Positions 3,712 through 63,729 of a stretch of DNA of 64,000 bases are shown piece after piece; positions within the stretch are counted from its first letter, which is position 1, and each line of letters starts with the position of its first letter. Origin of the DNA: a virus; the IMG/VR virus record IMGVR_UViG_3300045988_094716, positions 47,865-111,864 of that record; one strand, given 5' to 3'. A model generated the notes under the pieces. It saw only the letters and a program-made list of their open reading frames with translations, did not search any database and was not told where the DNA came from. The position numbers and the translations under genes were made by a program.

Positions 3712-3897
3712 ATGAATGATGTTGAAAAGATTATCAATGCCTTGAAGGACGAATATTTTTATTGCCAAGATATTGCTTACACTGCGCAAAAAGAAGGCGA
3801 TGAAGAGAGAATGACATGGTATTATGGCAAAGCAACCGGAATTAAAAAGTCTATTGAAACAATCAAAAAAATGAAGAATTACGGAATTATTTTATAA
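3712..3897 (+). CDS. hypothetical protein (61 aa)
   Basis: ATG after GAGGTGAGTG RBS. Confidence 0.45.
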   Translation: MNDVEKIINALKDEYFYCQDIAYTAQKEGDEERMTWYYGKATGIKKSIETIKKMKNYGIIL

Positions 3898-3913: not shown

Positions 3914-4780
3914 ATGACAAACTTATATTGCTACGATAATGAAATTATAAAATGGACTTACGGCGATAACCTGTATTGCTTACATATTCAGCACGACGAC
4001 GTTGCAGACAATAACCCTCGTTGGTGGGACGACCACGATTCTGTGATGGCTTGTTTCCATCCTCGTTACCGTCTTGGTGATAAGGTCGATGCGAGTACGG
4101 CAGAAGAATTTTGGAATAATCTGGTTTACAAGTATTGCTCTTATGAAGAGATTCTGGATGCGCTTTTCAATATGAAACTGGAAGATACTTGTGTTGTTGT
4201 TGATGAAAATTATAGCGACGAAAAACGATATGCCATCTGCGGTATTGGAACTCTTTATGATGAAAAAGTTTCCGAAGGCCCGATATATGTTGGATTGAAA
4301 CATAACGAAATTGCTACATATGTTGCTGGTGAATTTTCTATTCGTGATTGTCAGATTCTTCTTGATAAGCACATCGCATGGCTTCCTCTTTGGCTACATG
4401 ACCATTCTGGTTTGTCTATGGATTGCGATACGCGGTTCAGAGGTTCATGGGATGATAGTAATGTTGGTTGGATTGTGACAGCTATTACGGATGGTTCGGA
4501 TAATACCAAAAATGAAGCAGAACGAATTATGCGTGATGAGGTAAAGACTTATAGCGATTATCTTTCCGGTGAGAATTACGGCTACACGCTTTATCGAGAA
4601 GATCACGGAAAATGGAAGGAGATTGACAGAGCATTTGGATTTATCGGTTCTGATGTGTTTGAAAACGGTATCACATACAGCGCTGGTTGTGGCCTTGAAA
4701 CAGCATTGAAGGAAGATCGATGCCGTATCGGTGACGCTGAGAAGGTTGTGACAGTCACTTATAACTTTGATAAATGTTGA
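3914..4780 (+). CDS. hypothetical protein (288 aa), acidic, possible antirestriction-like
   Basis: long ORF with RBS; no motif I can assign firmly. Confidence 0.55.
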   Translation: MTNLYCYDNEIIKWTYGDNLYCLHIQHDDVADNNPRWWDDHDSVMACFHPRYRLGDKVDASTAEEFWNNLVYKYCSYEEILDALFNMKLEDTCVVVDENYSDEKRYAICGIGTLYDEKVSEGPIYVGLKHNEIATYVAGEFSIRDCQILLDKHIAWLPLWLHDHSGLSMDCDTRFRGSWDDSNVGWIVTAITDGSDNTKNEAERIMRDEVKTYSDYLSGENYGYTLYREDHGKWKEIDRAFGFIGSDVFENGITYSAGCGLETALKEDRCRIGDAEKVVTVTYNFDKC

Positions 4781-9347: not shown

Positions 9348-9572
9348 ATGATGGTATATGGAAACATAACGTGTAATCGCTGTGGCATTACATGGTATGG
9401 TCCTAAATGTGGAAAGCTCTATTGTGATGAATGTCGTAAGATAATAAGAAATGAGGCATCCATTCGATGCAAGAATAAAAAGAAACATAAACCAACATTT
9501 GTTGAGATTGTAAGAATGGCAGATGCTGAAGGATTATCTTACGGTAAGTATTGTTTGAAGTATGGAGTTTGA
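9348..9572 (+). CDS. hypothetical zinc-ribbon protein (74 aa)
   Basis: CNRCG...CGKLYCDEC motif; GAGGTG RBS. Confidence 0.45.
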   Translation: MMVYGNITCNRCGITWYGPKCGKLYCDECRKIIRNEASIRCKNKKKHKPTFVEIVRMADAEGLSYGKYCLKYGV

Positions 9573-9582
9573 GGTGAATATA

Positions 9583-10401
9583 ATGAGCGCAGTTGTTGAA
9601 AGAAAAGAAGAACAGATACCTAAATTGATTTATTTTAATCCGAAACCTTCTGTTCCGGCTAAAAAACGTGGTGTTACAAAAAGTAAGCAGAAGCGTAAGC
9701 GTAATATTTCTCCAATTAGAAGCTTGGATGATGTTCAAATGATTTCTGAATACTTCTGGGATAAAAAGCAATATCGCAATTGGTGTCTATTTAATGTCGG
9801 TATTGCAACTGGGTTGCGTGCTAGTGACTTGCTTAAATTGAAAGTTTCTGATATGTCTTACTGTCTTTATAATGGAAAAATTGAGGTGGTTGAGGACGCA
9901 GGAACTTGCATCGTCGAAGAAAAGACTTCTAAATATCGTGAAATCATTCTTACTCCAGAAGCGAGGGACATCGTTGAAACATACATCAAAATTGCGAAAC
10001 TTGGATATGATGATTGGATGTTTCCATCTCGACAGGGGAGCTGGAAAAAGTCTTTGAGAACAAATGGTGGATATGGGAAAACCGGTATTCTTCATATCGC
10101 AGAACCCAAAAATGCCGGTGATCCTATTGATGTTGATCATTTTGCTCGTATTCTTCGTAACGTTGGTAAAGATTTAGGTCTTAATTATAAAATTGCATCT
10201 CATTCTTGCCGCAAAACGTTTGGTTATCGTGAAATGTGTCTTAATAAGGATGATAATCAGGCATTGTCTTGGATTCAGGGTCAGTTGAATCATAGTAGTC
10301 AGGACATTACATTACGGTACGTTGGTTTTGATGAGGATAAGGCAAAAGAATATTATAAGAAGACTTTTTATGGTGTGAATACACACAGCTTGGAAGACTG
10401 A
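9583..10401 (+). CDS. tyrosine-type site-specific recombinase (short, about 272 aa)
   Basis: GLRASDLLKL (Arg box), HSCRKTF...LNHSSQDITLRYV (HxxR ... Y) catalytic motifs. Confidence 0.7.
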   Translation: MSAVVERKEEQIPKLIYFNPKPSVPAKKRGVTKSKQKRKRNISPIRSLDDVQMISEYFWDKKQYRNWCLFNVGIATGLRASDLLKLKVSDMSYCLYNGKIEVVEDAGTCIVEEKTSKYREIILTPEARDIVETYIKIAKLGYDDWMFPSRQGSWKKSLRTNGGYGKTGILHIAEPKNAGDPIDVDHFARILRNVGKDLGLNYKIASHSCRKTFGYREMCLNKDDNQALSWIQGQLNHSSQDITLRYVGFDEDKAKEYYKKTFYGVNTHSLED

Positions 10402-16396: not shown

Positions 16397-17323
16397 ATGC
16401 TTACTGAAGAAAAGATCAAAGCTTTTGCTGAAAAGTATTCTGATAGAAGCGGTGAGTTTGTTGTATCGACGCTTAACCATGTTCTGGGTTACGAGGCTGA
16501 GCGTGGGTATGAGTTGTTTGACTTCACAAAAGATGATTTCGTAAAGATGTTTGCCAAATATAATTGGGTGAACTCGAGTCGTTCGTTTAAAAATGTGAAG
16601 TCAATAATCACAGGCTACATCAAAAGCGAAAACAAAACAAGCATGTATGATCTGGCTGACTTTTCAGAGAGCGATGTAAGCGCAGACAATATGTATGCGG
16701 ATAAATACTTTGCATCAGTTGATGAGTTTGTTGACTTCTTAAATAAGTATGAAGAGCCATATCAGATTCGTATGAACGTGATTGCTGCACTGTACTGGAT
16801 TGGCCTTACTTCTGAAGAAGTTTCTAACCTGACGATTAACGATGTCGATTTTGAATCTTGTACTGTTCTTGATAAGACAGGTGTTGATGCAAAGTTGATG
16901 GATATTATTAAGCAGTGTTATGAAATGAAACAGTATGACGCTCCCAATAAGGGAGGGTATAGGGCATTCTATGTCATGAATGGTGATTACATCATTCGTA
17001 AAACCGAGGATAGTATCGGTGCAGACAGTGACCCAAAGATGTCTGTGCATACAATTCATACCTATTTTATGCGGTTGAATAACATCCTCGAAAAAAGATA
17101 TCACTCAAAGGCTTTAGATCGAAGGCATCTAACCAGAAACGGCGAATACGTGAAGGTCTACGACTACTGTAAGAATAATCCAGAATTTAATCTTGCAGAA
17201 CTTAGTTTCGGAAATGGTAAAGACCCTCTTGCAGACATTATCGGAAGAAAGTGTAGCAAGGTTGCCTACATTAGCTTCAGACAAGGATACAAAGGTTGGG
17301 TCGAATATTTCCATAAAAATTAA
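16397..17323 (+). CDS. tyrosine-recombinase-like protein lacking the catalytic Arg (308 aa)
   Basis: VIAALYWIGLTSEEVSNLTINDVDF resembles integrase box I but has T where R is expected; no clear HxxR/Y. Confidence 0.45.
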   Translation: MLTEEKIKAFAEKYSDRSGEFVVSTLNHVLGYEAERGYELFDFTKDDFVKMFAKYNWVNSSRSFKNVKSIITGYIKSENKTSMYDLADFSESDVSADNMYADKYFASVDEFVDFLNKYEEPYQIRMNVIAALYWIGLTSEEVSNLTINDVDFESCTVLDKTGVDAKLMDIIKQCYEMKQYDAPNKGGYRAFYVMNGDYIIRKTEDSIGADSDPKMSVHTIHTYFMRLNNILEKRYHSKALDRRHLTRNGEYVKVYDYCKNNPEFNLAELSFGNGKDPLADIIGRKCSKVAYISFRQGYKGWVEYFHKN

Positions 17324-17805: not shown

Positions 17806-19477
17806 GTACGATGCTGATCATAAGGCGGTTCACACCTGGGATCATTTCGCTGTCGAGATTCCTCAGCGGTTCATTGTCAATTCCTGCGATGTGACTACCA
17901 AGATGGCCGAGTGGCGTGATTCTGCTAATGTGTTCAAGCGTTCTCTGGAGGAGCTGACCATGGATGCCGTGGACACCGTACTTGAGCTGATTGCGCAGAA
18001 CAGCCTGTATCGCGGCAAGGAGTTTGAATCTCTGGTTCGTGGCTTCAAAATCGATAAGCGAGTGTATGATCGTCTGCCTGATGAAAAGAAGTCCGCTTAT
18101 GTTTGGATGGCTCCCGGCGGTGCGTCGATGAACCGGCTTCGTATTCGTAACACCGCTATCGGCACCCTTCTTATCAATTTGAGCGAAGGCATGGATGTGG
18201 ATTCCGCCGTTACCGCCTTTGAGAAGGTTGTCGCTCCTGCCAATTACAAGCGTCCCAAAGCTATTTTCACTAAGAAGATGCTGGAAGATGCACAGAAAAC
18301 CGTTACTGAGTTGGGTTACATGAACAGTCTGGGTCGCCGATTTGCCACTCTGGATGATATTACTGCCAACAATATTCTGTTCTGCAACCGCGATGCCGCT
18401 CCTCGTGTAATGGGGGCAATGAACCCGTTCGAGGCAATGGCAAAATCTATGGGCACCGATCCTAAGAAGTTCGGTCGCGCGGAGGAAATCGGCATCGACA
18501 AGTTCATCAGAGACGTGCTGCCGACTGCAACGGGCCTAGAGCTGTTTATGGAGAATCGTTTCGAGAAGAATATGATGTCTCTGATTGCTCTGCAGGATAA
18601 GGCTGCGCCGTCTATGTTCAAGTGGCCTAATGGTTTCAGTTGGGCATATACCGGCAACATGACTGACAGCCAGATTCGGGAGAACGTCAAGAATGCTGGC
18701 GGCAAAGTCGATGGCGTGCTGCGTTTCTCTATTCAGTGGAACGATAAGCCGGGCGAGTGGGATGAAAATGATGAGGATGCTCATTGCATTGAACCCGATA
18801 AGAATCACATCTATTTCGGCAGCAAGTGGCACCCTCGTACTGATGGCCGCCTGGACGTAGATATTATGCGTCCCATTCGCTATAAGGCCGCGGTCGAGAA
18901 TATCACCTGGCCTGACATCAAAAAGATGAAGGAAGGCGAGTACAGCTTCTATGTAAACTGCTTCGCTAGTCGCGGCGGCAAAACCGGTTTCCGTGCTGAA
19001 ATCGAATTCGATGGCAACATCTACTCGTTTAACTACGATAAGCCGCTGCATGGTGGTCAGAATGTAGCTGTGGCAAAGGTCACTCTGAAGGATGGCAAAT
19101 TCTCTATCAAGGAACTGCTTCCCAGTTCTACCAGCACCCGTGAAATTTGGGGTGTGAGTTCCAACCAGTTCGTACCTGTGTCTGTGGCGATGTACTCTCC
19201 GAACTACTGGGACGAACAGACCGGCAATGGCAATCGTCACTACTTCTTCATGCTCAAGGATTGCGTCAACCCCGAAAAGCCGAACGGATTTTACAACGAA
19301 TTCCTGAAGGCGGAATTGCTGCAGCATAAGCGAGTGTTTGAGGCACTTGGTTCTCAGATGGCAGTCCAGTCGGTGGATGACCAGCTGTCCGGTGTTGGTT
19401 TCTCTGAGACTCAGCACAACAGCTTTGTCGTCAAGGTACAGGGCGCAACTGAGCGAGTTCTGAGAGTGGTGATTTGA
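17750..19477 (+). CDS. hypothetical large protein (575 aa), GC-rich, probable continuation of 17410..17805
   Basis: long ORF, no RBS before its ATG. Confidence 0.5.
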   Translation: MLAAILISDGKFGTEVNYEYDADHKAVHTWDHFAVEIPQRFIVNSCDVTTKMAEWRDSANVFKRSLEELTMDAVDTVLELIAQNSLYRGKEFESLVRGFKIDKRVYDRLPDEKKSAYVWMAPGGASMNRLRIRNTAIGTLLINLSEGMDVDSAVTAFEKVVAPANYKRPKAIFTKKMLEDAQKTVTELGYMNSLGRRFATLDDITANNILFCNRDAAPRVMGAMNPFEAMAKSMGTDPKKFGRAEEIGIDKFIRDVLPTATGLELFMENRFEKNMMSLIALQDKAAPSMFKWPNGFSWAYTGNMTDSQIRENVKNAGGKVDGVLRFSIQWNDKPGEWDENDEDAHCIEPDKNHIYFGSKWHPRTDGRLDVDIMRPIRYKAAVENITWPDIKKMKEGEYSFYVNCFASRGGKTGFRAEIEFDGNIYSFNYDKPLHGGQNVAVAKVTLKDGKFSIKELLPSSTSTREIWGVSSNQFVPVSVAMYSPNYWDEQTGNGNRHYFFMLKDCVNPEKPNGFYNEFLKAELLQHKRVFEALGSQMAVQSVDDQLSGVGFSETQHNSFVVKVQGATERVLRVVI

Positions 19478-19749
19478 TGGAGCTTAAATATCATGTCGGC
19501 GATAAGGTTATGATTCGTCCGGATCTTAAAACGGGTGAAATATATAAGATGTATTCGGGGCCAATGCATGGCGGATGTATTTACAGTGTCACACCTAGTA
19601 TGAAACAGTTGGCTGGTAAATTTGCCACGATTGAAAGAGTTTGTGATAGGGGAGCTGGATATAGACTTGAAGAATATGGTTTCTCATGGACCGATGGAAT
19701 GCTGCTGCCGGCTGATTTAAATGAGTGCGTTTGTGCTTCGCTGTTGTGA
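19477..19749 (+). CDS. paralog 1 of C-terminal ECxCxSLL family
   Basis: ATG overlapping upstream TGA; ends NECVCASLL. Confidence 0.55.
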   Translation: MELKYHVGDKVMIRPDLKTGEIYKMYSGPMHGGCIYSVTPSMKQLAGKFATIERVCDRGAGYRLEEYGFSWTDGMLLPADLNECVCASLL

Positions 19750-19758
19750 GGTGGTCTG

Positions 19759-20034
19759 ATGAAATATCGATACGAACCCGAAGACGCAGTTTTCGTTCGG
19801 CCTGATTTGAAATGTGGCCTCGGTTATTGGATGCGTTCTGGGAAAAATGGAAACGAAGAACAGCTTGCAGCTGTTGGCGATATGTTGAACTTCGTAGATA
19901 AAACCGTTCATATTTCTGGATATTCTCGTAGTGGTTCTTATTACATCAAAGAAGATTCGGGACGATGGCGCTGGACTGATGAGATGTTCGTTGGTTTGGC
20001 TGGCAACGAATGCTACTGCGAATCTCTTCTGTGA
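19759..20034 (+). CDS. paralog 2 of C-terminal ECxCESLL family
   Basis: ends NECYCESLL; GAGGTGG RBS. Confidence 0.55.
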   Translation: MKYRYEPEDAVFVRPDLKCGLGYWMRSGKNGNEEQLAAVGDMLNFVDKTVHISGYSRSGSYYIKEDSGRWRWTDEMFVGLAGNECYCESLL

Positions 20035-20042
20035 GGTGCCAA

Positions 20043-20318
20043 ATGGACTATCGGTACAAAATAGGAGAGGCCGTTTGGGTTAGAGATGACCTCGAATATG
20101 TAGCCTCTTATGATATGACGTCTGGCCCTTATCCAGAAGGCAATCGTAATGTCGTGACAAATAAAATGGTCAAACTCCATGGGCAGCTTGTCCATATTAA
20201 AAATAATTCTGCTGCCGGCCAATATTATGTGGAAGAAACAAATAGTCTTCAATGGACCGACGATATGTTTGAAGGCTCGGAAAATAATAATGAATGCCGA
20301 TGCGAATCCCTTCTGTGA
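20043..20318 (+). CDS. paralog 3 of C-terminal ECxCESLL family
   Basis: ends NECRCESLL; GAGGTG RBS. Confidence 0.55.
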   Translation: MDYRYKIGEAVWVRDDLEYVASYDMTSGPYPEGNRNVVTNKMVKLHGQLVHIKNNSAAGQYYVEETNSLQWTDDMFEGSENNNECRCESLL

Positions 20319-20325
20319 GGTCGTT

Positions 20326-20613
20326 ATGGATTATGTAATTCCACTTCGATTTAAGCCCGGCGATCATGTTGTGGTTCGTCCGGATTTGAATATCAATACG
20401 GTCTACCAAACATTTGGAGGCAAGAATGCCGGTTATCGTACAATTCCAACAATGAATATGGTTCGCCTTGCTGGAATGGAATCTGAGGTTAAAGAGTATT
20501 CTAAGTCTCAAAAAACTGTAAAGCTAAAATGCTGTGGTTTTTATTGGACAGAACAAATGCTGATTCCCCAAAGTTTTGTAGAACAGGAATGTGTTTGTGA
20601 ATCACTTTTGTAA
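20326..20613 (+). CDS. paralog 4 of C-terminal ECxCESLL family
   Basis: ends QECVCESLL; GAGGTCG RBS. Confidence 0.55.
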   Translation: MDYVIPLRFKPGDHVVVRPDLNINTVYQTFGGKNAGYRTIPTMNMVRLAGMESEVKEYSKSQKTVKLKCCGFYWTEQMLIPQSFVEQECVCESLL

Positions 20614-21017: not shown

Positions 21018-21087
21018 ATAGACATTTTATCGTGATTTTCGTTAAAATAATTAACGAAAATACGTTAGAATTTTGAGGTGATTTTTG

Positions 21088-21753
21088 ATGAAAACCTACG
21101 AAAAAATCGAAACGGTGTTTAATCGTGATATCGAAGGCACTAAAAAGCTGATTATCGGTGATTTTCGTAATGAAACCATTGAGTTCCTACAAAATAATGA
21201 GTGGGAATTTACTGAGAAAGTGGATGGCACGAATGTGCGTGTTTGCTGGGACGGTCATAAAGTCAGCTTTGCCGGACGAACTGAACGTGCCGAACTTCCT
21301 AAGAATTTGGTGGATGCACTAAATGAAATTTTCGGTACTTCTGAAGCAGAGGAATTGTTTGAACAGACTTACGGTGATAAAGAAGTAATCCTCTTTGGAG
21401 AGGGTTATGGTGGCAAAATTCAAGGATGTGGTCATGGATACCGACCTGATGAGTGGTTCATCTTGTTCGATGTCCTGGTTGGTGATAACTACCAGAGTAG
21501 AGAGTGGGTTGAAAAGACTGCTCAGATGTTTGGTATCCAAGTAGTTCCTATTTTGTTTACAGGGACGATTCGAGACGGTATCAAGTTTGTGTGTCAACAT
21601 CCGAAGTCTACGGTTTCGATTAATGACATTTATATGGAAGGTCTGGTTGGTCGTCCAAAGGTTGAGTTGAAAGACCGCAGAGGTAATCGAGTAATTGTCA
21701 AAATCAAGTGGAATGACTTCAAGGATATCGCTGATACGCTTGGTAATGAGTAA
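21088..21753 (+). CDS. RNA ligase, Rnl2-like nucleotidyltransferase domain only (221 aa)
   Basis: motif I EKVDGTN, motif III-like ILFGEGYG, motif IV EGLVGRP, motif V VKIKW. Confidence 0.55.
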   Translation: MKTYEKIETVFNRDIEGTKKLIIGDFRNETIEFLQNNEWEFTEKVDGTNVRVCWDGHKVSFAGRTERAELPKNLVDALNEIFGTSEAEELFEQTYGDKEVILFGEGYGGKIQGCGHGYRPDEWFILFDVLVGDNYQSREWVEKTAQMFGIQVVPILFTGTIRDGIKFVCQHPKSTVSINDIYMEGLVGRPKVELKDRRGNRVIVKIKWNDFKDIADTLGNE

Positions 21754-21945
21754 TTAAGACATTTTCTTCCTCCGAAAATGCCCTGAGCGGGGCTGACAGC
21801 CGGGAAAGACCGGCAATATATGCCAAGGTGCTGCAAATGGGAGACAGGGCGAGCCCAAACCTCGCTGTGGAAACACATGCGGTTTCGAATACCGTCCTTG
21901 GCACCAGAGCCCGAACGTCCATCTATTAGATATTGGAGGCATTTT

Positions 21946-22842
21946 ATGAAAAAGATTGATAAACTTACAAAAGAAGAAATTGAGCAAGCTTTTGAGGAAA
22001 GCAAAAGTTAGGCTGCGGTTGCGGAGAAGCTTGGATATTCAAAAAATGGTGGAAGTACGAATCATGTACTTCAAGATTATGCAAAAGCGCACAATATAAA
22101 TACTTCTCATTTCACTGGGCAGGGCTAGAATAAAGGGAACGTGGATTTGTCTCGTTTTAAAAATGGAAGACGAATAAAGGATTTAAAATCCGCACTTCTT
22201 TCTATCAAACCATATAAGTGTGAATGTTGTGGAAACTCTGAATAGATGGGCAAACAGATTCCATTGCAAGTACATCATATTGACGGAAACCACATAAATA
22301 ATGAGTTAGACAATCTTCAGTTGCTTTGCCCGAATTGTCATGCACAAACTGATAATTGGTGCAAAAATAATATCGGAAAATACAAGACCGTGAGCGATAA
22401 AGATTTTCTTGATGCGTTAAAAACAACATCAACTATAAATGCTGCTCTTGAAAAAGTTGGAATTTATTATTCTGCGAGAGTGTGGTATGACAAAGCAAGG
22501 CAACTAATGATTGAAAACAACGTAACTCAAATTCCACGTGAAAAGGTTATCCGTGAGAAAAAAGAAAGAAAAAGAAGAAAAATCAAATATTGTTCAATAT
22601 GCGGAAAAGAAATGAGTCCGCGTGCAAAAGGATGTCTCTGTAAAAATTGTTTAAAAGGAAATCCTTACAGTAAACGCATTGATTTTCCTGATAAAGAGCA
22701 ATTGAGGGTAGACACAGCTTCAATGTCCTTTCAAGATGTTGGAAGAAAATATGGAGTATCAGGAAATGCAATACGTAAATGGTGCAAGCATTATGATTTA
22801 CCATACAGAAAATTAGATATGAACAGTAAAGAGGAAAATTAA
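21946..22842 (+). pseudogene. HNH endonuclease gene; a single frame interrupted only by three TAG codons. Pseudogene or amber-recoded gene
   Basis: frame open for 299 codons except TAG at 22009, 22126 and 22243; HNH core LQVHHIDGNHINNELDNLQLLCPNCH lies downstream. Confidence 0.6.
22246..22842 (+). CDS. HNH endonuclease catalytic portion (ATG-initiated segment after third TAG)
   Basis: HHIDGN...N...CPNCH HNH motif. Confidence 0.55.
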   Translation: MGKQIPLQVHHIDGNHINNELDNLQLLCPNCHAQTDNWCKNNIGKYKTVSDKDFLDALKTTSTINAALEKVGIYYSARVWYDKARQLMIENNVTQIPREKVIREKKERKRRKIKYCSICGKEMSPRAKGCLCKNCLKGNPYSKRIDFPDKEQLRVDTASMSFQDVGRKYGVSGNAIRKWCKHYDLPYRKLDMNSKEEN

Positions 22843-22855
22843 CGTTGATAAAAAA

Positions 22856-22882
22856 GAAGCTGTAAAAAAAAAATACAGCTTC
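22856..22882 (+). terminator. 9-bp perfect hairpin GAAGCTGTA-(A)9-TACAGCTTC, possible bidirectional terminator
   Basis: inverted repeat directly after HNH gene stop. Confidence 0.4.
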
Positions 22883-22889
22883 TATATAT

Positions 22890-22977
22890 GCCGCAGTGAT
22901 GGAGTGACATACATTTCCCGCTTAAACCGGGACGCCTGAAATATGGATCGTGGGTTTGAATCCCACCTGCGGCACCA
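22890..22977 (+). tRNA. tRNA-Leu (anticodon TAA), long variable arm, CCA encoded
   Basis: acceptor GCCGCAG/CTGCGGC; anticodon arm TCCCG-CTTAAAC-CGGGA; T arm GTGGG-TTTGAAT-CCCAC. Confidence 0.75.
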
Positions 22978-22980
22978 TAT

Positions 22981-23054
22981 CGAGAACGTGGTGTAATGGT
23001 AACACGCCTGCTTTGGGAGCAGGAGTTGCAGTTCAAATCTGACGTTTTCGACCA
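22981..23054 (+). tRNA. tRNA-Pro (anticodon TGG) with imperfect T-stem, possibly degenerate
   Basis: anticodon arm CCTGC-TTTGGGA-GCAGG; acceptor CGAGAAC/GTTTTCG; ends ACCA. Confidence 0.45.
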
Positions 23055-23149
23055 GTTGGTTTTCCAACATGCTTTTCATAAAATACATTTCCTATTATTC
23101 TTGGCTCTCCAAAAATGGAGCAATAGGACACAGCAAGCCAAGTATATAA

Positions 23150-23223
23150 TGCGTCGTAGCCAAGCGGTTAAGGCAGGGTCCTTTGAAGTCCCGATTGCGA
23201 AAGTTCGATTCTTTCCGGCGCAA
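23150..23223 (+). tRNA. tRNA-Gln (anticodon TTG)
   Basis: Gln-type D arm GCC-AAGCGGTTAA-GGC; anticodon loop CTTTGAA; T arm GAAAG-TTCGATT-CTTTC; acceptor TGCGTCG/CGGCGCA. Confidence 0.6.
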
Positions 23224-23230
23224 TTTATAT

Positions 23231-23315
23231 GCCACAGTGGTGGAATTGACCTACACATCTATTTTAGGGGTAGACGCCGAAAGGCTTGCGAGTTTGAGTC
23301 TCGCCTGTGGCACCA
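23231..23315 (+). tRNA. tRNA-Leu (anticodon TAG), long variable arm, CCA encoded
   Basis: acceptor GCCACAG/CTGTGGC; anticodon arm TCTAT-TTTAGGG-GTAGA; T arm GCGAG-TTTGAGT-CTCGC. Confidence 0.75.
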
Positions 23316-23421
23316 CGGTCATAGAATGGTTGCGTACCGTTTATTGATCTCCTTTGATTGCCACTATTATTCCCGGCTCGCCAGTGATGGTGCAGTAGTG
23401 CTTTGTAAGCTGGGTTTTCAT

Positions 23422-23496
23422 GCAGCGGTCGTACAACGGCTAGTACATCAGCCTTCCAAGTCGATGGAGTGGGTTCGATTCCCATTCGCTGCTCCA
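23422..23496 (+). tRNA. tRNA, probably Gly (anticodon TCC), with an A:C mismatch in the anticodon stem
   Basis: acceptor GCAGCGG/TCGCTGC; D arm GTAC-AACGGCTA-GTAC; loop CTTCCAA; T arm GTGGG-TTCGATT-CCCAT; CCA encoded. Confidence 0.5.
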
Positions 23497-23677
23497 ATCT
23501 CGTATGGGTAGGATCTTTAGCAGTCAGATCCTGCTGCGCCTGTGCGAGATACCACCCCGAAAGGGGCTAACGAAATTATCCATGTACGTTATTCTCGGCT
23601 CGCTCGAAAGAGTGCAGCGTGCCTTTGCAAGCCGAGCATCCCAGCCTAGTGATGCCAGTTGCTAGGTTGGTTCTTAT

Positions 23678-23753
23678 GCGACTGTAGTTCAATTGGCAGA
23701 GCGTCAGATTTCCAATCTGAATGTTGCGGGATCGTCCCCCGTCAGTCGCTCCA
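23678..23753 (+). tRNA. tRNA-Gly (anticodon TCC), CCA encoded
   Basis: acceptor GCGACTG/CAGTCGC; anticodon arm TCAGA-TTTCCAA-TCTGA; 76 nt. Confidence 0.75.
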
Positions 23754-23980
23754 CACGCAGCCCCTGACGCTGCACCGGTTACTCAGAGCCGAAAGGAACC
23801 TATATGTTACGACATGGTTGCCAAGAGTGATCATATTGGAACGCGACGTAGCTTGGATAGTGAGAATTAAATTCTGAGGTATACGGCTGGATAGCTTAAT
23901 GGTAAAAGCGCTCGGAAACACCGAGAGATGAGGTTCGATCCCTCCACTGGCATCGCGCCGACGAAAGTTGGCGGTTATAT

Positions 23981-24056
23981 GGAATAGTAGCTCAGTTGGT
24001 TAGCGCCGACAACTTATAATTGTCAGACGCGAGTTCAAATCTCGACTATTCCACCA
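23981..24056 (+). tRNA. tRNA-Ile (anticodon TAT, reads ATA), CCA encoded
   Basis: acceptor GGAATAG/CTATTCC; anticodon arm GACAA-CTTATAA-TTGTC; T loop TTCAAAT. Confidence 0.65.
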
Positions 24057-24197
24057 TCCCGAAAGGGCGTACATAAAATCTGCTAGAACTTTTGTTTTAT
24101 AAGCGAATGAATAATATGACGTTAATACGTCTATTGTTTTTTGCTTATTTTCGGGGATTTAGCTATATAACACAGGATACGAAAAGGAGGTGGTTTG

Positions 24198-24281
24198 GTG
24201 AAACATTATGGAAGTATTTGCGAGATTGGTGGTTCTAAGATTGAGCCTGTCTCGTGTATCACTGGTGGTTCACCTTGTTAG
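24198..24281 (+). pseudogene. C5-MTase fragment carrying the catalytic PC of motif IV (GTG start, ends GGSPC-TAG), out of frame with the rest of the gene
   Basis: ...IEPVSCITGGSPC in frame A; canonical PCQDLSIAGKR is restored only by removing 4 nt (TAGC, 24279-24282). Confidence 0.5.
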
Positions 24282-24870
24282 CCAAGACCTTTCTATTGCC
24301 GGTAAGCGGGCAGGTTTGGCTGGAGAACGGTCTGGTCTATTTATGGAAATGATTCGTGTGATAAAGGAAATGAGGGATGCCACCAATGGAGAATGTCCAA
24401 AATTTGCAATCTGGGAAAATGTCCCAGGAGCCTTCTCTTCCAACAAAGGAGAAGACTTTAGATGTGTCTTGGAAGAATTTGCACGCATTGTCGAACCAAG
24501 TGTTTCAGTTCCTCGACCTTCGGGAAGAGAATGTAAGTGGGCAAAAGCTGGAGCAATCGCCGGAAACGGATGGTCCTTGGCGTGGAGATTATTCGACGCT
24601 AGTGGTTGGGGTGTTCCCCAGCGTAGAAAACGTCTCGCGCTTGTCATGGACCTTAGAGGACAATGTGCCGGAAAAGTATTATTTGAGCAAACGGGCGTGT
24701 CAGGGGATCTTGACAAGAGCATCAAGACGTGGAAAACCATTGCCCGACCTTCTGAAGGATGCACTGCAGGAGATGATTCATTGGTGGGAGATGAAAGATC
24801 CTACACTTTGAAGATTCGTTCTGGCTGCGCAGGGGGGGGGGTAAAGGAGCACTCGTGCAGAATGAATTGA
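24208..24870 (+). CDS. DNA (cytosine-5)-methyltransferase segment with motifs IV (partial), VI (ENV) and VIII (QRRKRL); carries a G10 tract near its 3' end
   Basis: SQDLSIAGKRAGL, FAIWENVPG, GVPQRRKRLALV. Confidence 0.6.
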   Translation: MEVFARLVVLRLSLSRVSLVVHLVSQDLSIAGKRAGLAGERSGLFMEMIRVIKEMRDATNGECPKFAIWENVPGAFSSNKGEDFRCVLEEFARIVEPSVSVPRPSGRECKWAKAGAIAGNGWSLAWRLFDASGWGVPQRRKRLALVMDLRGQCAGKVLFEQTGVSGDLDKSIKTWKTIARPSEGCTAGDDSLVGDERSYTLKIRSGCAGGGVKEHSCRMN

Positions 24871-24935
24871 GTGCGACTCTCTCCACTTTGCAAGATCAGA
24901 CTTTGTTCTGTGTAAAGCATTAAGGAGGGAATAGA

Positions 24936-25691
24936 TTGGAAAAAGAAACTAGTTTACATAATTTAAAACAAAATATTTCCACAGCGGGATTTGAAAGCCA
25001 TAGTCAGGATGCTCGATACACTCAGCAAGGTAATACAAGCCCAGCTTGTACGGCTCAATGGGGTACTGGTGGTAATAATATGCCGCTTGTCGCTGAAAAG
25101 AAAGCCTTTGCTATGCAGCGTATTGGTGAATATAAGGAAAACGAACAGGCCAGCACAATGAAATCTCGTGATTATAAAGATGCAACTGATCTTGTAGTTG
25201 AAGAGAAAGAGGTGAAATGTGCTGGATTTCCACTTGGATTTAGAGCAGAAAATACGAAATGCTACGATGAAGTGGCTACTACGCTTTGCAATGGTACGCG
25301 GCCTGGATTTACTACTGGATGTGTTCTCAATTGGATTGTTCGCCGCTTGACTCCTGTCGAGTGTGAACGGTTACAGGGTTTTCCTGATGGATGGACCGAT
25401 ATTGGCGAGTGGGTTGACGAGAATGGTAAAAAGCACAAGCCAGCTGATTCTCCTCGGTACAAGGCACTCGGTAATTCAATCGCTTTGCCTCAGTGGTATT
25501 GGATTTTCCAGAAAATGAAGCCGTATATCGGTGAAAATCCTACGCTTGGCAGTCTTTTCGATGGGATTGGTGGCTTTCCGCTTGTCTTTGAAAGTACGTA
25601 TGGTGATGGTACTGCTATCTGGGGATCTGAAATCGAACCGTTCTGCGTTGCAGTAACTAAGAAGCATTTTCCAGAAAAGCAAGGAGGATAA
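24936..25691 (+). CDS. C5-MTase segment: target-recognition region + motifs IX/X, followed by motifs I-III at its C-terminus (circular permutation); TTG start
   Basis: RRLTPVECERLQGFPDGWT...YKALGNSIALP (IX/X), then LFDGIGGF...SEIEPFCVAVTKKHFPE (I-III); AAGGAGGG RBS. Confidence 0.6.
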   Translation: MEKETSLHNLKQNISTAGFESHSQDARYTQQGNTSPACTAQWGTGGNNMPLVAEKKAFAMQRIGEYKENEQASTMKSRDYKDATDLVVEEKEVKCAGFPLGFRAENTKCYDEVATTLCNGTRPGFTTGCVLNWIVRRLTPVECERLQGFPDGWTDIGEWVDENGKKHKPADSPRYKALGNSIALPQWYWIFQKMKPYIGENPTLGSLFDGIGGFPLVFESTYGDGTAIWGSEIEPFCVAVTKKHFPEKQGG

Positions 25692-47862: not shown

Positions 47863-47873
47863 AGGAGGATTAA

Positions 47874-62562: not shown

Positions 62563-63729
62563 ATGATAAGACGTAAAGATAATAATGGCAAAGTTTTAAA
62601 AGACGGCGAGAGCCAGAGAAAGGATGGGAGATACCAATATAGATGGACAAACAAACTTGGAAAACGCTCAATAATATACGCCACTTCACTTAAAGAATTG
62701 AGAGAAAAAGAAGCTGAAATCCAAGAAAAACTTAATTTGGGTATAACATCTGCTTCAAAAATCACAGTGTACCAATTAGCAAAAAGACATCTCGAAGAAA
62801 CAAAACTTACTATTAGGCCAAGCAGCTATAAAACAAAATCGCAGAATTTGAAAATCTTTCAGAATCACCTAATTGGGGAAATGAATGCAACTGATATTTT
62901 AGTGCGAGATGTAAAACAATTTGCACGAGAATTGGATAACGAAGGATATTGTTATACAACAATCAGAGATGTCATGTCTTTAGCTAGACCGGCATTTCAA
63001 GAAATGTTTGATGAGAATATAATTCCTAGAAATCCATTCGTTTTTAAATTAAATACAGTTGTCAAATGTGACTCAAAAGAAAAAGAAATATTAACAGAAG
63101 AGCAGTATCAAAATCTGATCAAGTTCATGAAATCTAGTCGAGTATATAAAAGGCATGTTGGCATGGTGATGCTTTTGCACGAGACAGGACTTCGAGCAGG
63201 AGAATTATGCGGGCTAACAAAAAAGTCATTTGATTTTGATAATAACACTGTTACTATATCTCATCAGATGGTGTACGATGGAAAGAGCGGCGGGCTGTAT
63301 TTAGCACCTACAAAAACAGAAAGTGGGATAAGGACTATCCCATTATCTAAAGACGCCATCATTGCTTTTGAAGAAGCGGTAAAACAACGTCCGATTGTAA
63401 AAGCAGAGAGAATAATAGATGGGCAAGCCGACTTCTTGTTTATAGCAAAAACTGGAAGGCCCTATACGAATAAAAACCTTGTTAGAATTTTTGAAGGACT
63501 AATCAAAGCCTATAATAGTTGCCATGATGAACCATTGCCTGAAGTCACTGCCCATAGTATGCGTCACGAATATTGTACACGGCTTGTCAAAGCCAAGATG
63601 GATGTTAAATCGGTTCAATACCTCATGGGACATTCGTCGCCCGATATAACCTTGAAAGTGTATACTCATATCTTAAAAGAAGAGACCGAAGCAGAGGCAA
63701 TCAAACAGTTTAATAGGATTGTTTCCTAA
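62563..63729 (+). CDS. int: tyrosine-type site-specific integrase (388 aa)
   Basis: catalytic HSMRHEYCTRL...LMGHSSPDITLKVYTHI; N-terminal arm-binding-like domain. Confidence 0.9.
   Translation: MIRRKDNNGKVLKDGESQRKDGRYQYRWTNKLGKRSIIYATSLKELREKEAEIQEKLNLGITSASKITVYQLAKRHLEETKLTIRPSSYKTKSQNLKIFQNHLIGEMNATDILVRDVKQFARELDNEGYCYTTIRDVMSLARPAFQEMFDENIIPRNPFVFKLNTVVKCDSKEKEILTEEQYQNLIKFMKSSRVYKRHVGMVMLLHETGLRAGELCGLTKKSFDFDNNTVTISHQMVYDGKSGGLYLAPTKTESGIRTIPLSKDAIIAFEEAVKQRPIVKAERIIDGQADFLFIAKTGRPYTNKNLVRIFEGLIKAYNSCHDEPLPEVTAHSMRHEYCTRLVKAKMDVKSVQYLMGHSSPDITLKVYTHILKEETEAEAIKQFNRIVS

Follow-up and report, generated by a model that had tools for sequence, protein, structure and literature searches.

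A U34-rich tRNA cluster of a gut phage, probably of Faecalibacterium, with covarying pseudoknots in its tRNA leaders

Why a phage should carry a compact series of tRNA genes, and what occupies the spacers between them, are the questions raised by the interval 22890-24056 of the 64,000-nt stretch of viral DNA analyzed here (IMG/VR record IMGVR_UViG_3300045988_094716, positions 47,865 to 111,864; "the window" below). Both ARAGORN and Rfam identified seven canonical tRNAs on the + strand of this interval, each matching RF00005 (41.5-59.1 bits; gathering score: 29), and seven such genes within 1.17 kb greatly exceed what chance would give. The genes, together with a degenerate relative found among them, are:

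22890..22977, + strand: tRNA-Leu(TAA); ARAGORN; Rfam 47 bits
22981..23054, + strand: tRNA-Pro(TGG), 3 nt past tRNA-Leu(TAA); ARAGORN; Rfam 53.7 bits
23150..23223, + strand: tRNA-Gln(TTG); ARAGORN; Rfam 53.5 bits
23231..23315, + strand: tRNA-Leu(TAG), 7 nt past tRNA-Gln; ARAGORN; Rfam 41.5 bits
23422..23496, + strand: tRNA-Gly(TCC) copy 1; ARAGORN; Rfam 53 bits
23678..23753, + strand: tRNA-Gly(TCC) copy 2; ARAGORN; Rfam 59.1 bits
23886..23952, + strand: degenerate tRNA remnant; Rfam 28.2 bits, just below the gathering score of 29
23981..24056, + strand: tRNA-Ile(TAT), loop CTTATAA; ARAGORN; Rfam 53.4 bits

A preliminary description, made from the sequence alone, had listed the anticodons UAA, UGG, UUG, UAG, UCC, UCC and UAU; the ARAGORN run that it proposed returned the identical seven genes, and the flanks are likewise as it gave them (an HNH ORF at 22246-22842 on one side and pieces of a C5-methyltransferase from ~24190 on the other). 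The possibility that these are pseudo-tRNAs is ruled out by the agreement of two independent detectors for 7/7 genes. Anticodon loops are canonical in all seven, and the two tRNA-Gly(TCC) copies differ in sequence. The remnant, which ARAGORN did not call, retains good D and T arms, combined with an anticodon loop of 5 nt and a mispaired acceptor stem. Searches for internal promoters and terminators in the phage cluster gave no signal above background, and none delimits the phage transcript.

The cluster extends upstream of the interval, where three further features were found:

21085..21753, + strand: RNA ligase-like ORF, 222 aa, a stand-alone nucleotidyltransferase domain; Pfam PF09414 RNA_ligase, 61 bits
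21822..21906, + strand: tRNA-Leu(CAA), C34, type II, first member of the ancestral cluster; called by ARAGORN alone
22246..22842, + strand: free-standing HNH endonuclease ORF between tRNA-Leu(CAA) and tRNA-Leu(TAA); Pfam HNH PF01844

The window copy of tRNA-Leu(CAA) has no Rfam match and exhibits the loop CCCAAAC with a non-canonical C33, a variant present in only 4 loci. The gene itself was found in 82 related loci, and in the relatives L186, L169 and L171 just 81 nt separate it from tRNA-Leu(TAA); therefore the natural unit is not all-U34. The statement that every anticodon of the cluster has U34 thus holds for 7/7 genes of the interval and for 7/8 of the ancestral unit, which includes the C34 tRNA-Leu(CAA) at 21822-21906. 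With this gene counted, 7/8 tRNAs encode CCA, tRNA-Gln being the only one whose 3' end, read from the sequence, is devoid of it. The window and L180 carry the HNH insert, which is missing from L186, L169 and L171; as judged from these sequences, a mobile HNH gene has separated tRNA-Leu(CAA) from the rest of the ancestral eight-tRNA cluster. The predicted ligase (PHROG 548, RNA ligase) ends 68 nt upstream of tRNA-Leu(CAA) and scores under the NCBIfam cutoffs for Rnl2 and DRB0094. Among the relatives it occupies the same position only in the two closest ones, L180 and L186, and we rejected the idea that such a ligase accompanies the cluster universally on the grounds of its presence in only these 2 relatives, with the qualification that many loci have short flanks.

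The cluster is conserved in ~100 related loci, carried on IMG/VR contigs of 70-150 kb, in which the first anticodon base is T34 in 399 and C34 in 131 cases. The phage is a large (~75-150 kb), replication-autonomous gut phage with genes for DNA polymerase, helicase, primase, RecJ, DNA ligase and an anaerobic NrdD, and replication genes flank the cluster. Its host is probably Faecalibacterium, as suggested by an RNA element shared with that genus (see below), by a methyltransferase gene with 72% nucleotide identity to Faecalibacterium phages, and by the anaerobic reductase. The phage has a GC content of ~0.41 and a GC3 of 0.43, compared to 0.55-0.59 and ~0.67 in Faecalibacterium.

This difference in composition brings us to the first explanation of the tRNA set, namely compensation for a host poor in tRNAs for A-ending codons. 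U34 tRNAs read NNA (and NNG) codons; since the GC-rich host rarely uses these, the phage would top up their decoders. The comparison of phage and host codon frequencies proposed in the preliminary description (inferred host Faecalibacterium; host counts taken from raw ORFs on metagenome contigs, not from curated genes) bears this out for leucine: CTA (7.7x), TTA (5.3x) and TTG (4.0x) rank 1, 2 and 4 of 61 in phage/host enrichment and are the most phage-enriched among codons unreadable by a G34 tRNA. CAA (2.2x) and CCA (1.6x) are weakly phage-enriched, and the seven cognate codons taken together have a mean rank of 17.1 (P = 0.014 against random codon sets, for the inferred host). The tRNA that fits compensation best outside the interval is the C34 tRNA-Leu(CAA). 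However, when the 14 sense codons ending in A are compared with each other, enrichment is no higher in the six served by a phage tRNA than in the remaining eight (P = 0.53); GGA is not phage-enriched (1.04x) despite the duplicated tRNA-Gly(TCC), nor is ATA (0.85x), whereas ACA, TCA, AGA and AAA are enriched 2.7-3.4x and have no phage tRNA. Moreover, third codon positions of the phage are T-rich (0.37) rather than A-rich (0.21). The case for compensation is thus clear with the three leucine tRNAs and far less so with those of Gln, Pro, Gly and Ile; the claim of an AT-rich phage making up for its host stands for the former and fails for GGA and ATA, and we consider it unlikely that compensation for A-ending codons alone explains the whole set.

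The tRNA-Ile(TAT) deserves a separate comment. It forms a well-formed cloverleaf, and its anticodon in the canonical 7-nt loop CTTATAA was read directly and called by ARAGORN, exactly as first described. Its presumed rarity needs qualification: such tRNAs are uncommon in bacteria, but there is a precedent in Firmicutes with a TAT gene beside tilS (Taniguchi et al. 2013, PMC3575796), and in sister phages the same slot holds TAT in 19 cases and CAT in 44. In unrelated viral loci TAT occurs in 2/9 tRNAs, a background sample (9 tRNAs from 109 random viral loci) that is indicative at most. The phage gene resembles tRNA-Ile(UAU) of Mycoplasma mobile and Firmicutes in having TAT in a canonical loop and in decoding AUA without lysidine (PMC3575796), and differs in that the predicted decoder belongs to a phage and that, in sister phages, a CAT tRNA can take its place in the slot. 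Charging of tRNA-Ile(UAU) requires an IleRS that accepts U34, in which Arg replaces the residue corresponding to E. coli Trp905 (PMC3575796). CAU and UAU decoders of AUA thus swap freely between sister phages.

The tRNAs for Gln, Pro, Gly and Ile may serve as a general insurance against shortage or damage of tRNAs during infection. A more specific variant of this idea, by analogy with T4 Rnl1/Pnkp acting against PrrC, is that phage tRNAs replace cleaved or depleted host tRNAs while the ligase would repair cleaved ones. Wobble-uridine tRNAs are classic targets of anticodon nucleases, the predicted ligase lies 68 nt upstream of the cluster, the Gly and Ile tRNAs are not explained by codon use, and the C33 of the window tRNA-Leu(CAA) is unusual. 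On the other hand, the canonical anticodon loops of the seven core tRNAs, the restriction of the ligase at this position to two relatives, the lack of a polynucleotide kinase/phosphatase among the ~20 larger ORFs scanned, and the fact that no host nuclease is known make a counter-defense role of the cluster rather doubtful.

The general pattern has long been known, because T4 shows it: eight clustered tRNAs on the same strand (Arg-TCT, Ile-CAT, Thr-TGT, Ser-TGA, Pro-TGG, Gly-TCC, Leu-TAA and Gln-TTG), 7/8 with T34. Common to T4 and the window are Leu-TAA, Pro-TGG, Gln-TTG, Gly-TCC and an AUA-reading Ile, as well as a homing endonuclease gene within the cluster (segB in T4, HNH here), co-located additional structured RNAs and an RNA ligase annotated nearby. 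The two differ in that T4 has Arg, Thr and Ser tRNAs in place of Leu-TAG, Leu-CAA and the second Gly, and CAT rather than TAT in tRNA-Ile. Their hosts, E. coli and probably Faecalibacterium, are unrelated, and the T4 rnaC and rnaD are RNAs of 119-139 nt at the cluster end, not repeated leader pseudoknots. As a U34 cluster, the locus therefore adds only an example from a Firmicutes phage.

What sets the locus apart are the spacers, whose structured elements the preliminary description had overlooked. They contain:

22855..22883, + strand: 10-bp leader hairpin (fold -13.0 kcal/mol, z = -7.3), ending 6 nt before tRNA-Leu(TAA)
23090..23142, + strand: pseudoknot copy 1 (model R1, 58.9 bits), ending 7 nt before tRNA-Gln
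23362..23414, + strand: pseudoknot copy 2 (model R1, 70 bits), ending 7 nt before tRNA-Gly
23584..23636, + strand: pseudoknot copy 3 (model R1, 68.3 bits), followed by a hairpin plus 7 nt and then tRNA-Gly
23641..23670, + strand: optional hairpin of 13 bp, following copy 3 and followed in turn by the 7-nt AU linker TTCTTAT and tRNA-Gly copy 2
23956..23973, + strand: 7-bp hairpin with a GAAA loop (folding), ending 7 nt before tRNA-Ile

The helices of copy 1 are P1 TCCTATT/AATAGGA, P2 CTTGGCT/AGCCAAG and P3 CTCCA/TGGAG; copy 2 has P1 CACTATT/AGTAGTG and P2 CCCGGCT/AGCTGGG, and copy 3 P1 GTACGTT/AGCGTGC and P2 CTCGGCT/AGCCGAG. Model R1 finds exactly three copies of the 53-nt pseudoknot in the window (59-70 bits; next best match: 11.6) and 213 copies in 100 related gut-phage loci. 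The initial DNA pattern was loose, its matches being mostly due to chance and filtered afterwards. The fold is supported by the alignment: 96-98% of the cells in the helices are paired, compared to 78-80% in shuffled and 29-49% in slid controls, and compensatory changes occur in 12/19 pairs, including 5/7 pairs of P1, which was constrained neither by the search pattern nor by the CM. In diverged copies P2 is swapped wholesale, and RNAalifold recovers P2 and P3 unaided. P3 ranges from 5 to ~17 bp with unconserved loops of 3-4 nt, and while P1 and P3 vary freely, ~20 nucleotides at the junctions are near-invariant; the junctions read AUU, C and CUUUGUA. Because of the G-U pairs, the fold is specific to the tRNA-sense strand.

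On the + strand no Rfam 15 family overlaps the three copies at E up to 10; the sole overlap is a minus-strand plastid family (16.2 bits, gathering score 65.7) that clips the last bases of copy 3 at chance level. The pseudoknot was not found in those portions of the text and supplements of published catalogs of candidate structured RNAs that were available to us, and it is apparently undescribed so far.

The position of the element is as regular as its fold. ARAGORN reports a tRNA downstream of 119 of 175 copies, with a modal gap of 7 nt, and nearly all remaining copies are followed by a tRNA-like gene at 8 nt; the distance from the previous tRNA to the pseudoknot is at least 11 nt, with a median of 88 nt. 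More generally, a stable structure lies ahead of each of the eight tRNAs, be it another tRNA, a plain hairpin or, in three cases, the 53-nt pseudoknot, and is separated from the gene by an AU-rich single-stranded linker of 3-8 nt; for tRNA-Leu(CAA), folding places the end of a leader hairpin 7 nt upstream of the gene. The length of the linker is about that of the leader stretch contacted by the bacterial RNase P protein. The optional 13-bp hairpin is kept in relatives with compensatory changes. We also considered the pseudoknot as a mark of MnmEG-type (xm5U34) tRNAs only (Leu-UAA, Gly-UCC and Gln-UUG), and dropped this idea because the element also precedes Gly-CCC, the tRNA of the CAT/TAT slot and the tRNA-like gene, and because the phage Leu-UAA itself has none.

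The same pseudoknot occurs in the chromosome of the probable host. In at least three Faecalibacterium genome contigs and in 70/89 high-GC metagenome contigs, a promoter (TTGACA-17-TATCAT) is followed by a leader, the pseudoknot, 5-9 nt, tRNA-Leu-TAA and a terminator, making the host tRNA-Leu(UAA) gene monocistronic. This calls to mind bldA, the regulated tRNA-Leu(UAA) of the GC-rich Streptomyces: in both cases the tRNA that decodes TTA, a rare codon in these GC-rich bacteria, has a stand-alone gene, and its production shows hints of special control, although here regulation is only hypothesized, the organisms are unrelated, and we know of no leader pseudoknot in bldA.

With the fold, position and host presence of the pseudoknot established, our preferred reading, to which we assign a probability of roughly 60%, is that the cluster constitutes a functional tRNA operon, transcribed as a polycistron in a probable Faecalibacterium phage and equipped with host-derived, cis-acting pseudoknot modules in its 5' leaders; polycistronic transcription and all functional roles are predicted from sequence comparison. 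The ancestral unit would comprise Leu-CAA, Leu-UAA, Pro-UGG, Gln-UUG, Leu-UAG, two Gly-UCC and an AUA-reading Ile (UAU; CAU in sisters). The phage would have copied the pseudoknot from its host and placed it before its own tRNAs, which might then mature in the way the host tRNA-Leu(UAA) does. As to the role of the element, we tentatively suggest that it quite possibly acts in RNase P-linked 5' maturation, where it may hold the proximal leader single-stranded or be recognized by a host factor; the rest of our belief is divided among a ligand-sensing aptamer, a new type of self-cleaver and a stable leader RNA freed by RNase P. A role as a clamp only is weakened because a plain hairpin, like those before three tRNAs here, would do, and the ~20 near-invariant junction nucleotides point to a more specific function. 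We speculate, with less conviction, that a new cis-regulatory or catalytic RNA class, either ligand-sensing or self-cleaving, could, in Faecalibacterium, gate the processing of tRNA-Leu(UAA), a rare-codon decoder, by RNase P, and that phages of this genus captured and multiplied it to govern the supply of their own tRNAs.

A riboswitch-like aptamer, in which a small molecule or ion would gate production of the downstream tRNA, has in its favor the compact, covariation-supported, aptamer-like fold with conserved junctions, located downstream of a strong promoter in a 5' leader. In the host it would regulate a rare-codon tRNA-Leu(UAA), loosely like bldA, and TTA is indeed very rare there (1.7 per 1000 codons). 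One subset of copies also has a hairpin and a U-rich tail after the pseudoknot. Most copies, however, lead within 7 nt into a tRNA, with no coupled expression platform, no Rfam riboswitch matches the element, and control of a tRNA by a riboswitch would, as far as we know, be without precedent; on balance this reading appears improbable. A riboswitch with the hairpin 23641-23670 as a terminator was rejected, as not all copies have this hairpin and the usual AU linker comes after it, with no conserved terminator.

We also compared the pseudoknot with the self-cleaving HDV-like theta ribozymes, since cleavage at the 5' edge of P1 might separate tRNA precursors, and an encoded CCA, present in 7/8 tRNAs, calls for an endonucleolytic cut downstream of the tRNA. 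The element has the HDV-like nested order P1, P2, P3, P1', P2', and a pyrimidine-rich, G-poor tract ending in CAY lies upstream of P1. It shares with theta ribozymes the occurrence in tRNA clusters of gut Caudoviricetes, the nested P1/P2 order interrupted by an inserted hairpin, ~7 bp for each of P1 and P2, a short J1/2 (P1, J1/2 and P2 lengths: 7, 3 and 7) and an overall size of ~50 nt (PMC10879173). Theta ribozymes are, however, defined by a G1-U pair, a 3-bp P3, an L3 of T-CC-ACGY, a GG P1.1 and, as the first base of J4/2, an invariant catalytic C (PMC10879173), and they adjoin the tRNA 3' end (Kienbeck et al. 2024, PMC10879173). Here the first P1 pair is variable and never G1-U (among 44 distinct sequences C-G 17, U-G 12, G-C 8, U-A 1, unpaired 6), P3 is of variable length with unconserved loops and hence offers neither L3 nor P1.1, and P1' is followed by C/T-TTT instead of GG. 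The J-initial C is replaced by T in several variants (TTTTATA, TTTTGTA, TGCTTC...), a change that at the catalytic C inactivates HDV-like ribozymes. The pseudoknot lies 5' of tRNAs, typically far past the previous tRNA and never adjoining it, and also occurs in a host gene that, being monocistronic, needs no separation. No HDV-family Rfam model matches it at E up to 10, and an explicit theta descriptor search, which recovers published theta sequences, found none here and none at tRNA 3' ends. Membership in the theta/HDV-like group is thus rejected on five defining features (among them G1-U, the 3-bp P3/L3/P1.1, the invariant catalytic C and a cleavage site at most 5 nt from the tRNA 3' end), and we regard a self-cleaving relative of these ribozymes as quite improbable. 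That RNase P frees the leader as a product in its own right, a stable small RNA consisting of the pseudoknot and a 7-nt tail, would by analogy recall the two stable RNAs of unknown function (rnaC and rnaD) from the T4 tRNA cluster and give the fixed 7-nt spacing a purpose in setting a defined 3' end, but the copies differ within one phage and have no conserved target-pairing region, P1 and P3 being free to vary and the conserved nucleotides lying at the junctions, so that we hold this for very unlikely.

Codon compensation, then, explains some members of the cluster (Leu) and not others (Gly, Ile), and the wider interest of the locus lies in its leaders. To our knowledge, bacterial pre-tRNA 5' leaders have been regarded as unstructured throw-away sequence; a covarying pseudoknot with conserved junctions and constant spacing to the RNase P site, present in a bacterium that ranks among the most abundant commensals of the human gut and in its phages, suggests that the maturation of tRNAs is subject to an unrecognized level of control or quality assurance. 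The element is a marker of host-phage linkage and, compact as it is, a candidate for a ribozyme or aptamer of a new class. If it does gate maturation by RNase P, a structured element dedicated to control would have been found in the 5' leader of a bacterial pre-tRNA for the first time.

ARAGORN called exactly seven tRNA genes at 22890-24056 (hereafter the interval), with the anticodons listed in the preliminary description, and each of them scores above the gathering threshold of the Rfam tRNA model (41.5-59.1 bits; gathering score 29). Their anticodon loops, read from the sequence and tabulated, are canonical (U33, purine 37); thus they are confirmed as genes and not pseudo-tRNAs. Over the whole window ARAGORN reported eight tRNA genes, every one on the plus strand. 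The eighth, tRNA-Leu(CAA), was omitted from the earlier list, as was a degenerate tRNA remnant (28.2 bits in Rfam, 5-nt anticodon loop), which lies within a 227-nt spacer 5' of tRNA-Ile; relatives (phage loci L114 and L118) show the identical 227-nt spacing. tRNA-Leu(CAA) is not recognized by Rfam and carries C33 (loop CCCAAAC) in place of the near-universal U33, as do 4 of the 81 family copies, the remainder having U33.

Features of the tRNA locus (tRNA genes from ARAGORN and Rfam unless stated; leader pseudoknots, 53-nt RNA elements, from the covariance model, 59-70 bits)
21822-21906, plus strand, tRNA-Leu(CAA), C34, ARAGORN only
22246-22842, HNH ORF in the insert between tRNA-Leu(CAA) and tRNA-Leu(TAA)
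22890-22977, plus strand, tRNA-Leu(TAA)
22981-23054, plus strand, tRNA-Pro(TGG)
23090-23142, plus strand, leader pseudoknot, copy 1
23150-23223, plus strand, tRNA-Gln(TTG)
23231-23315, plus strand, tRNA-Leu(TAG)
23362-23414, plus strand, leader pseudoknot, copy 2
23422-23496, plus strand, tRNA-Gly(TCC), first copy
23584-23636, plus strand, leader pseudoknot, copy 3
23678-23753, plus strand, tRNA-Gly(TCC), second copy
23886-23952, tRNA remnant
23981-24056, plus strand, tRNA-Ile(TAT)

About 100 related IMG/VR loci, retrieved with a degenerate pattern built from the spacer repeat, lie nearly all on 70-150 kb phage contigs from gut metagenomes and have a conserved tRNA order: Leu-CAA, Leu-TAA, Pro-TGG, Gln-TTG, Leu-TAG, Gly-TCC (one or two copies), Ile-TAT or CAT. 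The first two are 81 nt apart in three relatives (L186, L169, L171), and the window and L180 have an insert of ~1 kb there, which includes the HNH ORF. The claim that every anticodon has U34 therefore stands inside the interval but not for the ancestral cluster: the all-U34 interval is the outcome of an endonuclease insertion, since the HNH-bearing insert parted the C34 member from the others. The wobble base across the family is T in 399 cases vs C in 131. TAT fills the Ile slot in 19 loci, against 44 with CAT, so two AUA-reading solutions interchange. U34-dominated phage tRNA clusters have long been known, that of T4 being one (ARAGORN: Arg-TCT, Ile (CAT), Thr-TGT, Ser-TGA, Pro-TGG, Gly-TCC, Leu-TAA, Gln-TTG), and the present one adds a new example. 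T4 has the homing endonuclease segB inside its cluster and an annotated RNA ligase near it; in the window an RNA-ligase domain on its own (PF09414) stops 68 nt short of tRNA-Leu(CAA).

With genes for a DNA polymerase, DnaB-like helicase, primase, RecJ, DNA ligase and anaerobic NrdD, the window is a large phage's replication module; the same phage carries three tyrosine-integrase-like ORFs in these 64 kb (9562-10401, 16397-17323, 62563-63729). Four tandem paralogous small ORFs (19474-20613, ~91-144 aa) have the C-terminal pattern ...W(T/R)D.M(L/F)...EC.C(A/E)SLL. The C5-cytosine methyltransferase region (24190-25691) is interrupted by frame breaks, three or more in number: four additional bases (TAGC) separate GGSPC from QDLSIAGKR, which is in a different frame, the third frame holds a TRD-like stretch (EKYYLSKRACQGIL...) and a stop at 24870, and motifs IX and X fall in the ORF 24936-25691, whose 3' end adds an in-frame N-terminal motif-I fragment (LGSLFDGIGGF...KKHFPE). 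It may be either a decayed or rearranged array or a product of indel errors.

The methyltransferase gene has 72% nucleotide identity to Faecalibacterium phages, and the leader pseudoknot occurs in three GTDB Faecalibacterium contigs among the matches listed (GC 0.55-0.59), as well as in numerous human-gut metagenome contigs of high GC. These similarities and the anaerobic reductase make Faecalibacterium the probable host. The preliminary description had proposed that an AT-rich phage compensates for its host, and we compared 14,988 codons of the window with 154,539 codons from raw ORFs of 75 high-GC contigs of the inferred host. CTA (7.7x), TTA (5.3x) and TTG (4.0x) rank 1, 2 and 4 of 61 in phage enrichment; the values for the other cognate codons are CAA 2.2x, CCA 1.6x, GGA 1.04x and ATA 0.85x. 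Compensation is therefore convincing for the leucine tRNAs, the C34 one included, whereas Gln and Pro show it weakly and the duplicated Gly tRNA and Ile do not show it. The seven cognate codons jointly rank above random codon sets (P = 0.014), but among the 14 A-ending sense codons the six with a phage tRNA are not more enriched than the others (P = 0.53); ACA, TCA, AGA and AAA are enriched 2.7-3.4x and have no phage tRNA. Phage third codon positions are T-rich, not A-rich (T 0.37, A 0.21). The locus is probably a functional tRNA operon of the T4 type, in which the bias to U34 arises from a need to read NNA/NNG codons seldom used by the GC-rich host; the codon data demonstrate this for Leu, and for the other tRNAs we infer it. 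That phage tRNAs are insurance against tRNA depletion or cleavage stays a live alternative, because the RNA-ligase ORF adjoins the cluster.

A repeat search revealed three 44-nt direct repeats in the tRNA spacers, each recognized by inspection, and then by testing, as part of a 53-nt pseudoknot: P1a (7 nt, NNNNNTT), J1/2 (ATT), P2a (C-Y-Y-G-G-C-T), the P3 hairpin (C-G closing pair, 5 to ~17 bp, loop unconserved), J3/1 (C), P1b (A-R-NNNNN), a junction that is mostly CTTTGTA, and P2b (AGCYRRG). Among 24 distinct copies, collected with a pattern that leaves five variable P1 positions and P3 unconstrained, 96.4% of cells are paired (77.8% shuffled, 31-48% with partners slid), with both-side changes in 13 of 21 pairs. 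A covariance model of P2 and P3, with P1 not encoded, found exactly three matches in the window (next best 11.6 bits) and 213 copies in 100 related loci; P1 is 97% paired in 44 distinct matches, with compensatory changes in 5 of its 7 pairs. P2 is exchanged wholesale in diverged copies (CCTTCCT/AGGAAGG, CCTATCT/AGGTAGG), and RNAalifold independently predicted P2 and P3. Since G-U pairs are frequent, the fold is specific to the tRNA-sense strand. The 12 nt immediately upstream of P1 (122 copies; 23078-23089, 23350-23361 and 23572-23583 in the window) form a pyrimidine-rich, almost G-free tract ending C-A-Y, similar to the U-rich linkers 5' of tRNAs.

An ARAGORN tRNA lies directly downstream of 119 of 175 copies (Gly-TCC 103, Gln-TTG 8, Leu-TAA 7, Gly-CCC 1), at a modal gap of 7 nt; a second mode, ~41 nt, belongs to copies with an optional but conserved hairpin in between. 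Nearly all other copies have, 8 nt downstream, a tRNA-like gene that ARAGORN does not call and whose anticodon stem is 3 bp long. The tRNAs found after diverged copies are tRNA-Gln and the one in the Ile/CAT slot. The preceding tRNA is at least 11 nt away (median 88) and never adjacent. The acceptor, D and T arms of the tRNA-like gene (L022 ~3813-3884 and many relatives, e.g. L045, L051, L054 and L065; absent from the window) are well formed. Its anticodon stem is GCA/TGC and its loop GGCUGAA or AGCUAAC, with CUG or CUA at the centre and G, not U, at position 33; the variant with CUA may be an unusual amber suppressor or a decoy. In the Faecalibacterium locus a promoter (TTGACA-17-TATCAT, 11/12 consensus matches) lies ~70 nt upstream of the pseudoknot, which is separated by 5-9 nt from a stand-alone tRNA-Leu(TAA) followed by a terminator. 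Of 89 cases in high-GC metagenome contigs, 70 have the pseudoknot in front of Leu-TAA. The Faecalibacterium genes in L235 (1959-2258) and L216 (~4500-4754) are monocistronic; their promoter is close to consensus and their leader about 130 nt long. Faecalibacterium tRNA-Leu(TAA) lacks the encoded CCA present in seven of the eight phage tRNAs.

All eight window tRNAs are preceded by a stable structure and then a 3-8 nt AU-rich linker ending AT. Pro and Leu(TAG) have the previous tRNA in this place, Leu(CAA), Leu(TAA) and Ile a plain hairpin, and Gln and both Gly the pseudoknot, alone or with a hairpin; the pseudoknot fills the slot taken elsewhere in the cluster by a tRNA or hairpin. The RNase P protein contacts a single-stranded stretch of the pre-tRNA leader, and the 3' end of the pseudoknot may mark the start of this stretch. 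We tentatively regard it as a maturation module (probability roughly 40%), which would be a host-derived, cis-acting leader element linked to 5' processing. Because the junction nucleotides are conserved, its role is probably more specific than that of a clamp, implying host-factor recognition, ligand sensing or catalysis.

Some other role is the next candidate, though an unlikely one. An aptamer is somewhat less probable: ligand sensing would suit the conserved junctions, but the pseudoknot has no expression platform of the kind that a riboswitch needs. Self-cleavage is more doubtful still. Theta ribozymes, HDV-like and tRNA-associated, occur in gut phages (PMC10879173) and share the nested P1/P2 order and helix lengths 7/3/7, but the pseudoknot lacks their G1-U pair, 3-bp P3 with L3 and P1.1, and invariant catalytic C. 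It is found on the 5' side of tRNAs, not the 3' side, and also in a monocistronic host gene; this identity was rejected. A theta descriptor that recovers published sequences found none here, and Rfam (plus strand, E up to 10) gave no match to the pseudoknot. Least probable is a released stable RNA, even though two stable RNAs lie at the end of the T4 cluster. We found no description of the pseudoknot in the searchable literature and two structured-RNA candidate catalogues, with partial coverage. The U34 tRNA cluster is real but ordinary, and its initial interpretation was partly right; the feature worth follow-up is the leader pseudoknot common to host and phage.
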